DNA of 64,000 nt, taken from the NCBI GenBank assembly GCA_040903985.1, contig JBBDUI010000002.1, forward strand, positions 198,038 to 262,037, read 5' to 3'. Origin of the DNA: Candidatus Saccharimonadales bacterium (GTDB taxonomy: Bacteria; Patescibacteriota; Saccharimonadia; QS-5-54-17). Shown here in pieces: positions 57,127 to 59,895 of this stretch. The stretch's first letter is position 1, and every line of letters begins with the position of its first letter. A program made the translations under genes and the position numbers. The notes under the pieces are model-generated. The model did no database searches, was not told the origin of the DNA, and was given only the letters and a program-made list of their open reading frames with translations.

Positions 57127-59895
57127 TTAGAGTTCAAGTTCGGCGTCAAGGTCCTGTTTCACCACTGTAGCAATCTGCTGCAACCGCTGCTGGATATCCT
57201 GCTCATTCAAAGTCTTGGCGTGAGCCTGCAGCTCTAGATGAACCGTAATCACTCGACCAGACTCCCGTTGAAACTCGTCCTGATAGGTGACGACCACGTC
57301 CTCTACCTGAGATAGGCTAACAGCCAACTGCTGCCAAGTGACTTTATCTGGCACCATGACGGCTATATCCCGGTAACTGCTTTGATACCGTGGTAACGGC
57401 TCAAACCGCGCCGACTGCCATAGCTCTAGCAGTCGCACCACGTCGAGCTCGACCACTGCTACCGCATTGCGTAATTTCTGATTCTGCATAATTTTTGAAT
57501 GCAGTTCGCCGTAACAGCCGATCGCTACCCCGTCCACCTCAAGTGTCACTTGGCGAGCTGGGTGCAAGCTTGGATTGTCATGGCTGGTAACGAACTGAGG
57601 GGTGATCTGCAGTAAGCGCATAATCTGGTCGATATCACTCTTTACCCGCAGACGAGCCTCATCCTGCTGCCAGGCTAGGGCTAGCATCGTGTGCTCCAGT
57701 GGCAGCATCTCATCTGAGCGCGGCGTATAGGTACGGGCGATTTCAAATACGCCAAAGTTATCCTTATATGTAGTATTATCTACTACGGCTTTCAACAAGG
57801 TAGGTAGTAAACTCTGCCGCAAATAGGCCTGCTCCTGACTACGAGGATTTTTCAACTTCAGGTGGTTTTGGCCGGTAATCTTGTAGTTGGCTAGGTCGAC
57901 CTCGCTGATGAACGGATAGGTCGTCACCTCAAATAGACCCCGACCCCGCAAGAGCTGACGCAACTCATTTAGTCGACTCCAGTAGTGATCGACTAAACCC
58001 TTCTCCTTTGGTCTCCAGGCAGGCAAAGTGGCCTCGAGATTATCCAGTCCGTATAGCTTAATCACCTCTTCAGCGATGTCGGCCTCGTCACGCAAATCAG
58101 GTCGCCACCAAGGAGCTGTCACTTGCACATACTGCTCTAGGTCACCTACATAACGGCGAGCTCCCAAAAACTGGCTATCCTGGCTCATCTGTTCTAGTGA
58201 TAACTCTACTACCTGTTGTTCCTCGACCGGTAGCTCTTCCCACTCATCAGCTTGATTACGCACATTGTTACGGGCATCAATGATCTTACCTTCACCGATA
58301 TAGAGCGCTACATGTGAAACTCCCTCGCGTTCGACCTCATCTAGTTGAACCCAGGGGCCACCCCGGAAGACGAGATCACCAGGACGCAAATCAGCCAGCT
58401 CCACCGCGGTACCACTCGTATACTGAGCATGAGCTGTATGGCCGATCTTAATCCCAATCAACGAGTAGATATAGTCCACTAGATACGAGCAGTCGAAAGC
58501 TTTAACCCCATCGGTCTTAAAGCTGGCACCCAACTTATACGGTTTAGCGAGGTGCTTACGAGCTTCTAGGGCAATATCGAACGGCTCGGCATCGATCTGG
58601 AGATGACGCAGGTAGTCGGACACCTCCTCACGCTCTAACTTCACTCCCAATAGCTGTTGCAGGCGAGGAGACCGGACACCTATATGCTGGACCCAGGGCC
58701 AGATGTTCAATTCATTCTGGTATGCTGTCAGCTCGGCTCCAGCATACTCCTGCAGTAGATGTACCGCGTAACGTAGCGCGGGACGAACGGCCTGTACCGG
58801 TAAACCACGCTCAAACCGAGCACTTGCCTCAGTTCTTAGGCCGTGGCGCTTAGCCGACTTACGTACTAGTACATCCGAGAAAGTAGCGGCCTCGACTAGT
58901 ATCTCCTGCGTATTATCACCGATTTCAGCCGTCTCACCCCCCATAATTCCAGCTAGTGCGACTGGGTGCTTACCACTGGCTACCACTATATCCTCGCTAG
59001 CTAAGGCTCGCTTTACTCCATCCAGAGTCGTTAGTACTTCGCCGTTGGTAGCAAAACGTAGCGTCAGCGGACCCTTCACTTGAGCCGCATCGAAAGCATG
59101 CAGAGGTTGGCCGGTCTCAAGCATCACATAATTTGTAACATCGACTACGACATTAATGGGGCGGACCCCCGCTAGGCGCAGCCGGCGTTGCATCCAGGGT
59201 GGTGAAGCAGCGACTTTTTGCGGAAGCTTAAGCTTAAGTAAGCCATAGCAGGACACTTCCTCTTTAGCTTGATTAGTAAATAAATTAGTAACCCGCTGAC
59301 CGGCAGGTGGCGCCTGGACTATCTGCTCGATTAAATCTGTAGCCGGAGTGTGAGCGGCCACCTCCCGAGCTAAGCCGACATAACTCTGGAGGTCCCAGCG
59401 ATTAGCGGCCGTCTTAATATCGACTACGCTCTGCTCAGCATTAAAAACTTCACGCAAAGGCAGGTCGGCCGCTACCTCAGTACCGAGATCAAGCAGACCC
59501 TCATGACTACCGCCTAGCCCCAGCTCCAACTCACTACATAGCATACCGTAGGAATCGTGACCGCGGATCTTGGCTTGAGTAATCTCAGTTCCGTCAGGCA
59601 GCACAGCCCCTAATTGAGCGAAAACCACTCGCTGCCCTACGTAAAGGTTTGGAGCGCCACATACTACCTGATACTTCTTACTACCCGATTTGACGGTCGC
59701 TACCTGCAACCGATCGGCGTTGGGATGTGGTTTGACCTCTACTACGGTGGCGGTAACGATACGAGAATCAAACTCTGGTGGCTGGATCACCTCCTCTACT
59801 TCTATACCGGCCCGCTCCAGTGCCGCCACCATCTCCGCTACTCCTAACGGCTCACTAAGGTGTTGATTTAGCCATTCACTCACTATCTTCACCAT
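57127..59895 (-). CDS. pheT: phenylalanyl-tRNA synthetase beta subunit carrying an inserted NlpC/P60 (papain-like cysteine peptidase) domain
   Basis: N-terminal tRNA-binding domain, B3/B4 (TAANRWDL...) and B5 (WWRPDL...[12 protein letters not shown]). Within B5 there is a roughly 150-aa insert: ...[28 protein letters not shown]...PGDLVFRGG...[18 protein letters not shown]. Confidence 0.9.
   Translation of the reverse strand: [922 protein letters not shown]

Follow-up and report, generated by a model that had tools for sequence, protein, structure and literature searches.

Why does the β subunit of phenylalanyl-tRNA synthetase (PheRS) carry a cysteine-peptidase domain of the kind known from cell wall hydrolases, and what does this domain do there? 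The question is raised by the pheT gene in a stretch of 64,000 nucleotides from a Candidatus Saccharimonadales bacterium (assembly GCA_040903985.1, contig JBBDUI010000002.1, positions 198,038 to 262,037 of the forward strand), designated here as the window and numbered from its first letter. It is near certain that a complete p60-type NlpC/P60 (MEROPS C40) papain-like domain is inserted in the β-hairpin "wing" of the B5 winged-helix domain of the encoded protein, and the architecture and conservation of the insert are likewise near certain. The insert is interpreted here, with a probability of about 0.5, as an autonomous and active thiol hydrolase carried on PheRS, which would most likely cleave cytoplasmic gamma-D-glutamyl (murein-type) peptides.

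An NlpC/P60 domain inserted in PheT

The pheT open reading frame (ORF) encodes the functional PheRS β subunit of a Saccharimonadales bacterium, belonging to Patescibacteria or the candidate phyla radiation (CPR). The gene, its partner pheS, the domains and the catalytic codons are located in the window as follows.

59898..60920, minus strand: pheS, PheRS α subunit, 340 aa (Pfam tRNA-synt_2d 311.7 bits, Phe_tRNA-synt_N 61.8 bits)
57127..59895, minus strand: pheT, PheRS β subunit with the NlpC/P60 insert, 922 aa, ATG start (ORF, TIGR00472 and Pfam)
59479..59760, minus strand: B2 or tRNA_bind domain (EMAP-like oligonucleotide/oligosaccharide-binding, OB, fold), aa 46-139 (Pfam PF01588, 64.6 bits)
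58738..59235, minus strand: B3/4 editing domain, aa 221-386 (Pfam PF03483, 205 bits)
58591..58698, minus strand: N-terminal half of the B5 domain, aa 400-435, closing in strand 435-438
58132..58590, minus strand: inserted NlpC/P60 (MEROPS C40) cysteine-peptidase domain, aa 436-588, 153 aa
58261-58545, minus strand: NLPC_P60 Pfam core of the insert, aa 451-545, followed by a C-terminal extension ending in the GARR motif (aa 578-581)
58489..58491, minus strand: codon of Cys469, the catalytic nucleophile (motif F-D-C-S-Y)
58312..58314, minus strand: codon of the catalytic His528 (motif S-H-V-A-L-Y-I-G)
58276..58278, minus strand: codon of Asp540, the third, His-orienting position of the triad
58036..58131, minus strand: C-terminal half of the B5 domain, aa 589-620, motif PWWRPD, opening with strand 589-594 (Pfam B5 stretch 584-616)
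57439..58035, minus strand: B6/B7 catalytic-like module (CLM; tRNA_synthFbeta), aa 621-819 (Pfam PF17759, 129.5 bits)
57136..57393, minus strand: B8 FDX-ACB anticodon-binding domain, aa 835-920 (Pfam PF03147, 38.6 bits)

pheT begins 2 nt downstream of pheS, and the two genes are adjacent in 40 of the 41 related loci. All five Pfam domains of PheT (tRNA_bind, B3_4, B5, CLM and FDX-ACB) exceed their gathering thresholds in the window protein. The NCBIfam equivalog model TIGR00472 (pheT_bact) scores 620.6 bits against a cutoff of 402.65, with its match split in two stretches, and Pfam B5 is also matched as two separate stretches. NLPC_P60 (PF00877) matches aa 451-545 with the E-value 3e-15 and 56.5 bits against a gathering cutoff of 23, and several NCBIfam NlpC/P60 models match at around aa 441-545. 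The signature motifs of NlpC/P60 are found at aa 467-492, 505-513 (PGDLVFRGG) and 526-543.

In phmmer comparison with solved PheRS β chains, the alignment breaks at residue 434 of the query and resumes at 584-590, while only 4-9 residues lie between in the solved chains (442->451 in 2rhs_B of Staphylococcus haemolyticus, 434->438 in 4p71_A of Pseudomonas aeruginosa). The insert was therefore defined as aa 436-588 (window 58132-58590). An earlier note, written from the letters of the window alone, had claimed that an NlpC/P60 domain of about 150 aa is embedded in the B5 domain at residues around 430-600, with the catalytic Cys and His present and Asp at the position of the usual third His. The TIGR00472 and PF00877 scores and the split B5 bear out the embedding, the 153 aa at 436-588 the size and place, and C469, H528 and D540 the catalytic residues; the profile scan that it had proposed supports NlpC/P60 with both Pfam and NCBIfam models.

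The solved bacterial PheRS β subunits (1PYS/2IY5 from Thermus thermophilus, 3PCO from Escherichia coli, 2RHS from S. haemolyticus and 4P71 from P. aeruginosa) show the same order of B1, B2/tRNA_bind, B3/4, B5, B6/7 CLM and B8 FDX-ACB, and the adjacent pheS and the conserved editing-site residues are also common to bacterial PheRS and the window PheRS. None of the solved chains that matched has an NlpC/P60 insert; the domain of 153 aa in the window PheT replaces their loop of 4-9 residues.

Superficially, ~150 additional aa at a conserved position in an essential protein resemble an intein, and an assembly chimera or an intein-like element removed from the mature protein could be considered. 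The same in-frame architecture is, however, present in hundreds of independent assemblies (NCBI, JGI, ENA and Logan), and a protein identical to the window PheT is deposited in NCBI as PheT of a Candidatus Saccharimonadales metagenome-assembled genome (MAG; P0003), encoded on a 747-kb contig. The G+C content is 0.508 in the insert and 0.526 in the rest of pheT, with no composition break. The junctions are AEPFD at the start and LEQ/YVQV at the end, with neither the Cys or Ser start nor the His-Asn plus Cys, Ser or Thr end of inteins, and no Hint or intein Pfam match was found in the window PheT, where both Pfam and the fold indicate NlpC/P60. The insert is also modeled as a stably folded domain within B5. 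Both the artefact and the mobile-element readings were rejected on these grounds, and they retain almost no credence.

Fold of the insert and comparison with NlpC/P60 enzymes

For aa 405-620, AlphaFold2 was run with 36 diverse homologues, and the resulting model scores 95.3 in the predicted local distance difference test (pLDDT). The model of the full-length protein has a pLDDT of 94.6, and aligns end to end with solved bacterial PheRS β chains with target-normalised template modeling (TM) scores of 0.6-0.68. In the model, the insert exits B5 after strand 435-438 and re-enters it at strand 589-594, as expected for a domain insertion in a β-hairpin. Helix 469-478 begins with C469 and strand 528-534 with H528; D540 lies within strand 537-541. 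The order of Cys, His and the third residue is not permuted, as NlpC/P60 requires.

The papain-like α+β fold of the insert superimposes on solved NlpC/P60 members, and the closest structures are autolysins and wall hydrolases associated with conjugation or phages. RipD, a non-catalytic NlpC/P60 protein that binds peptidoglycan, is among both the structural and the hidden Markov model (HMM) matches. Neither the closest fold and sequence relationships nor a permuted or His-His-Cys arrangement placed the insert among the LRAT/PLAAT acyltransferases.

The p60-type C40 DL-endopeptidases (Acd24020 of C. difficile (7CFL), LytE and CwlO of Bacillus subtilis, MepS of E. coli, SagA of E. faecium and RipA of M. 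tuberculosis) are secreted or wall-anchored, with a signal peptide and with LysM, SH3b or coiled-coil modules for targeting. The PheT insert is inside a cytoplasmic aminoacyl-tRNA synthetase (aaRS) and has none of them. Neither a signal peptide nor an export or wall-targeting module (LysM, SH3b, coiled coil or lipobox) was found in the window PheT, whose N-terminus is the canonical B1, and the Pfam scan gave no LysM, SH3 or peptidoglycan-binding domain. The insert should not be classed as an autolysin. It is also more acidic than free-standing relatives and contains ~15 residues more between the third catalytic residue and GARR.

Distribution in Patescibacteria

PheT sequences with a homologous insert at the same site number ~290. 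Saccharimonadia, Parcubacteria/Paceibacterota, Microgenomates/Pacebacteria and Howlettbacteria are their sources. PF00877 is present along with the PheT domains in each of the ~115 best full-length relatives, which are 900-970 aa long and 35-62% identical (clusters at 90% identity); their named sources are Saccharimonadales/Saccharimonadia, Microgenomates or "Patescibacteria group". An exhaustive HMMER scan with the B5 and insert segment against 1.84 billion cluster representatives revealed 223 matches at E<=1e-10. When the best 150 of these 223 were classified, a second, short class of PheT was recognized, 770-840 aa in length, lacking the B2 tRNA_bind domain but with the same order of the N-terminal half of B5, NlpC/P60 and the C-terminal half of B5. 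Among the same top 150 representatives, PheT is the only housekeeping host of the insert, and no other aaRS carries it.

A search with the short-class protein P0220 added 120 PheTs, all with PF00877. The sources of the short class are Parcubacteria, Lloydbacteria, Yonathbacteria, Terrybacteria, Campbellbacteria, Pacebacteria and Paceibacterota, and these PheTs often bear the name "C40 family peptidase" in NCBI. The scan of GTDB species genomes gave 40 loci, nearly all from Saccharibacteria with the addition of a Howlettbacteria genome; it used a narrower alignment, is biased to Saccharibacteria and is not a measure of prevalence. A word-index search with the segment of insert and B5 gave two matches, one of which is a PheT fragment, the index being insensitive for so short a query. 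The insert-bearing architecture thus characterises much of Patescibacteria. The alignment of relatives, which the earlier note had suggested for dating the insertion, shows an old and inherited insert at a B5 site shared across these lineages.

The PheRS of Parcubacteria is minimised. PheS is 242-250 aa long and consists only of the class II core, without the N-terminal coiled coil. PheT has no B2 tRNA_bind domain, yet the NlpC/P60 insert with the full Cys-His-His triad is kept. The pheS/pheT loci are as follows.

Locus L042: 5177-5905 and 6001-8421
Locus L043: 4912-5664, 5669-6001 and 6001-8409

In L043, an unannotated ORF of 110 aa lies between pheS and pheT.

Database annotations were noted for P0032, P0085, P0269, P0271, P0272, P0291, P0300, P0370 and P0379, and for P0080, P0260 and P0261. 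Because of the insert, several full-length PheTs go under "C40 family peptidase" in NCBI, or under "phenylalanine--tRNA ligase beta subunit-related protein". A few PheT fragments are assigned to MAGs of Nanoarchaeia or Aenigmarchaeota. They are probably mis-binned, because they are bacterial-type PheTs.

Conservation of the active site

Conservation was counted in 112 long-class and 163 short-class aligned insert-bearing PheTs. The nucleophile Cys is conserved in all 163 short-class sequences and in 110 of the 112 long-class sequences, the other two having Ser. The catalytic His is seen in 110/112 and 162/163 sequences, respectively. The third position of the triad is His in 153 of the 163 short-class sequences. 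At this position in the long class, His (51), Met (14), Glu (12), Gln (12), Asp (10) and Thr (6) are observed. PDB entries of RipA mutated at C383, H432 and E444 provide a precedent for an acidic third residue, as in the window protein.

F467, D468, Y471, G506, D507 and G534 are invariant in the 112 long-class inserts, with G-A-R-R close to invariant. The short class keeps the canonical LPR-x-S-x-x-Q motif, while the arginine of LPR in p60-type enzymes is replaced by His, Phe or Tyr in the long class (H486 in the window protein). The mean pairwise identity of the NlpC/P60 core is 0.528, the highest of the segments, versus 0.50 for B3/4, 0.35 for CLM and 0.28 for B8. Such a pattern is predicted for a catalytic cysteine hydrolase under purifying selection, and a purely structural spacer would hardly account for it.

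Between the G-D-x-x-F strand and the catalytic His, many long-class inserts (e.g., P0047, P0083 and P0100) have a variable sub-insertion of up to ~40 aa. The window protein has the short form at this point (aa ~513-526). In P0167, a long-class PheT of 916 aa from an NCBI contig of 11.9 kb, the insert is degenerate and both the catalytic Cys and His are lost, as in a pseudo-enzyme; this is the sole case among the ~290 sequences examined.

The domain retained in P0167, the Met at the third triad position and the presence of RipD among the structural and HMM matches would each fit a module that is mainly non-catalytic. By analogy with RipD, it could bind or scaffold, either as a muropeptide sensor that ties translation to the wall status or as a docking surface for proteins. 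The conservation of Cys in 273/275 and His in 272/275 sequences, across lineages whose identity is only ~30%, is unexpected for a purely structural domain, and the catalytic-core motifs DCS, GD and H-x-x-x-Y-x-G are invariant or nearly so. A mainly non-catalytic role is thus considered improbable.

Origin and loss of the insert

When NlpC/P60 domains are compared by neighbor joining, the PheT inserts of the long and short classes, 53 in all, group as a single clade, apart from 45 free-standing domains. This clade has no intruders other than two short fragments, of which P0001 starts with the N-terminal half of B5. Because the inserts form one clade and share the insertion point, the tree supports either one ancient insertion or a spread of the complete gene inside the phylum.

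The nearest PheTs without an insert are P0118-P0122, 771-777 aa in length. In the tree of core PheT, calculated with the insert columns removed and rooted with E. coli, all five branch within the long-class clade that bears the insert (50/50 bootstraps), without forming a monophyletic group. Both trees are distance-based on limited samples. The gene order at P0121 and P0122 is identical to that at the window gene: rmuC, trpS, a small membrane ORF, pheS, pheT, L,D-transpeptidase, a small ORF and a large ATPase. As the insert-less PheTs nest within the insert-bearing clade, the insert has been cleanly lost at least two times, and is a separable module that is dispensable for aminoacylation.

Relation to editing and aminoacylation

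In the alignment with E. coli PheT, residues R244, N254, H265, G318, E334, T354 and A356 correspond to R245, N255, H266, G319, E335, T355 and A357 of the window protein. These E. coli residues form the editing site, and their identities were confirmed in the E. coli sequence. The Asn, His, Gly and Glu of the editing site are kept in 112/112 long-class insert-bearing PheTs, and the short class is equally conserved. A variable Glu, E321 in MGGE, is not the editing Glu; the true one, E335, is invariant. The idea that the insert compensates for a degenerate editing site was thus rejected, and since the B3/B4 editing residues are intact, the insert does not replace editing. Editing roles of His261 and Glu334 of T. 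thermophilus PheRS were reported in PMC3275996, where B5 is described solely as a helix-turn-helix "DNA binding-like" domain with no catalytic role.

Hydrolytic domains inserted in or appended to aaRSs are a shared theme of editing and accessory systems, such as CP1 of class I synthetases, INS of ProRS, N2 of ThrRS, and the free-standing B3/4 homologues, e.g., the CtdA deacylase. None of these is a papain-like cysteine hydrolase, unlike the PheT insert. Also unlike these systems, the window-type PheT keeps its canonical editing domain, and the insert is dispensable in some lineages.

Alternatively, the substrate of the insert could be what PheRS itself produces, with Cys469 attacking the aminoacyl ester of charged or mischarged tRNA(Phe). 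By hydrolysis, the insert would provide an additional site of editing or deacylation, with D-Phe, m-Tyr and N-blocked Phe as examples of what it could remove. Transfer of Phe from the thioester to an amine acceptor, such as the stem peptide of peptidoglycan, would make it an aaRS-embedded aminoacyl-transferase. The choice of host would be explained in this way, as PheT is the sole housekeeping host among the top 150 representatives and no other aaRS is. The fusion has been kept over very deep divergence, even in the minimised PheRS of Parcubacteria without B2 and the PheS coiled coil, and the long class has diverged at LPR, the canonical substrate-side motif. The NlpC/P60 superfamily includes enzymes that act on esters through an acyl-thioester intermediate (LRAT/PLAAT), which also counts in favor of such an activity.

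The intact editing site, however, speaks against action on tRNA, as does the fact that the insert was lost repeatedly and resembles acyltransferases only weakly. The surface of the insert is acidic as well: its net charge is -10 in the window protein and ~-3 on average in the family, while it is +0.7 in the free-standing relatives. This argues against a general RNA-binding surface. Action on tRNA(Phe) is therefore held to be unlikely, although it is the strongest of the alternatives; a non-catalytic role, a role outside the cell and an artefact rank below it. In the full chemical scheme, Cys469 would take over Phe, or else a mis-activated or D-amino acid, from tRNA(Phe), forming a thioester that is then either hydrolyzed (a second, mechanistically new editing site) or transferred to an amine acceptor. 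This scheme is doubtful, and more so than action on the tRNA as such.

Proposed function of the insert

An active thiol hydrolase that is autonomous from its host is the reading preferred here. The insert would be kept for its own activity, outside the aminoacylation and editing machinery, and PheRS, which would be expressed constitutively in the cytoplasm and offer a permissive loop on its surface, would serve as its carrier. The B5 loop at the insertion site also varies in length in other bacteria. The Cys469 thiolate would attack the amide between gamma-D-Glu and the diamino acid of soluble murein-derived peptides, with His528 as the general base oriented by Asp540. The activity would resemble the recycling or scavenging by YkfC, and D-Glu and diamino acids would be released in organisms unable to make them. 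Soluble cytoplasmic murein peptides are suggested as the likeliest substrate because the domain is a canonical DL-endopeptidase by sequence and fold and PheRS is cytoplasmic.

YkfC (B. subtilis, and BCE_2878 of B. cereus, PDB 3H41) is a cytoplasmic gamma-D-glutamyl-L-diamino acid endopeptidase of murein-peptide recycling. Its two N-terminal SH3b domains shape the specificity for a free L-Ala N-terminus. These domains are missing from the PheT insert, and the specificity of YkfC is therefore not transferable to it.

Several points weigh against a salvage peptidase. The muropeptide assignment comes solely from the similarity to peptidoglycan endopeptidases, and the SH3b domains with which YkfC-type enzymes select free L-Ala N-termini are the ones that the insert lacks. 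The choice of PheRS as the host is left unexplained and needs a historical accident at a permissive loop. Met as the third residue in 14/112 and the replaced LPR arginine in the long class may mean that substrate binding has diverged from the classical peptidoglycan peptidases. P0167, which keeps the domain without Cys and His, hints at some non-catalytic value. Taken alone, the substrate assignment, i.e., the amide between gamma-D-Glu and the diamino acid of murein peptides, is the weak step of this reading, and is given less than even odds.

Gene neighbourhood

The gene cluster around pheT is conserved in Saccharimonadia: a 118-aa membrane-type ORF, pheS, pheT, in part of the loci an L,D-transpeptidase gene, a 152-aa ORF, and an ATPase similar to type IV coupling proteins (T4CP), the coupling proteins of type IV secretion systems (T4SS). 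The neighbours of pheS and pheT are as follows.

60917-61273 of the window, minus strand: 118-aa ORF, multi-pass membrane protein-like, no Pfam match, overlapping the start of pheS by 4 nt
56606-57064 of the window, minus strand: conserved 152-aa ORF downstream of pheT, no Pfam match, present in 30 loci
53237-56590 of the window, minus strand: 1117-aa T4SS coupling-protein-like ATPase, with weak T4SS-DNA_transf/TrwB matches and a long low-complexity Pro/Ser-rich C-terminus; DUF8128 in related contigs
~5.6-8.6 kb in locus coordinates (L003, L004, L007, L010-L012, L014-L019, L021-L024, L026, L027, L029, L031-L037, L039 and L040) and 9368-10807 in L044: L,D-transpeptidase gene after pheT

The 118-aa ORF appears to be translationally coupled to pheS. 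It is found before pheS in 37/41 loci, and an ORF of comparable length (122-124 aa), also without a Pfam match, is upstream of pheS beside the insert-less PheT.

In 28/40 Saccharimonadia loci, the gene directly downstream of pheT, and co-oriented with it, encodes an L,D-transpeptidase with PG_binding_4 and YkuD domains. The window and its closest relatives lack this gene at that position. The small membrane protein, the L,D-transpeptidase and the T4SS coupling-protein-like ATPase in the cluster, together with the autolysins and the conjugation- and phage-associated wall hydrolases as the closest structures, could fit a PheRS that moonlights outside the cell. Released or exposed on the surface, it would use the insert as a wall hydrolase against its own wall or that of the host bacterium, which would match an epibiotic lifestyle. 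PheT is, however, the obligate cytoplasmic partner of PheS, and its N-terminus is the canonical B1 with neither signal peptide nor wall-targeting module. The synteny with L,D-transpeptidase is not tied to the insert, as the gene also flanks insert-less PheT and is absent at the Parcubacteria loci; it was rejected as a clue to the function of the insert. A role outside the cell is very unlikely.

A link of the insert to the neighbouring T4CP-like ATPase, or to wall hydrolases of the conjugation type, is unsupported. In a preprint on T4SSs of Patescibacteria, most CPR homologues of T4CP are located away from virB4, and the preprint is silent on pheT and NlpC (10.1101/2025.01.22.634366).

The rRNA operon of the window

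The rRNA operon in the window is interrupted in the style of CPR, with ~6 kb between the 16S and 23S rRNA genes. This gap includes two tRNA genes and three protein ORFs, and the 23S rRNA gene is itself longer than its model.

40959-42443: 16S rRNA gene
34812-40959: gap between the 16S and 23S rRNA genes
40309-40383 and 38158-38231: tRNA genes
38801-40129: 442-aa ORF without Pfam match
36473-37327: Big_13 Ig-like protein
35078-36394: ferric-reductase-like flavoprotein
30731-34812, minus strand: 23S rRNA gene, 4082 nt versus a 2925-nt model
31897-32092: group-I-intron-like match in 23S (RF00028, 35.9 bits, under the gathering score of 50)
31966-32442, minus strand: 158-aa ORF, LAGLIDADG_1 homing endonuclease (86 bits), overlapping the group-I-intron-like match

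There may be further insertions in the 23S rRNA gene, as one intron of ~0.5 kb leaves part of the ~1.1 kb excess unexplained.

Significance

Full-text literature searches found no paper in the library searched that describes a fusion of PheT and NlpC/P60 or its function. The earlier note had called such a fusion not a textbook architecture. Older papers mention "nlpC" and "pheT" together because in E. coli K-12 (NC_000913.3 1792267-1797944, L041) the gene of the lipoprotein NlpC happens to be located ~3 kb downstream of pheT. Databases already flag the NlpC/P60 domain in PheT by automatic annotation. What is new would be the undescribed, phylum-wide and evidently selected combination of two well-known modules.

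The insert is a clean lineage marker. It also leads to annotation errors, with whole PheTs named "C40 family peptidase" in NCBI, and adds ~150 residues to a gene that is used as a phylogenetic marker. The natural insert-less relatives are ready-made controls for experiments.

Few proteins are as conserved as the aaRSs, and every appended domain that has been studied gave new biology, such as editing, regulation or moonlighting. Here, an apparently active cysteine peptidase of the wall type has been kept in PheRS over much of Patescibacteria, which represent a large share of bacterial diversity and scavenge from host cells. The insert may prove to be an ordinary salvage peptidase carried on PheRS. 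If it degrades murein peptides, it would open a route by which organisms unable to make D-Glu and diamino acids salvage them in the cytoplasm. If it acts on aminoacyl-tRNA instead, it would represent a new chemistry of proofreading or aminoacyl transfer, and a hitherto unknown class of aaRS-resident aminoacyl-transferases or deacylases specific to Patescibacteria.

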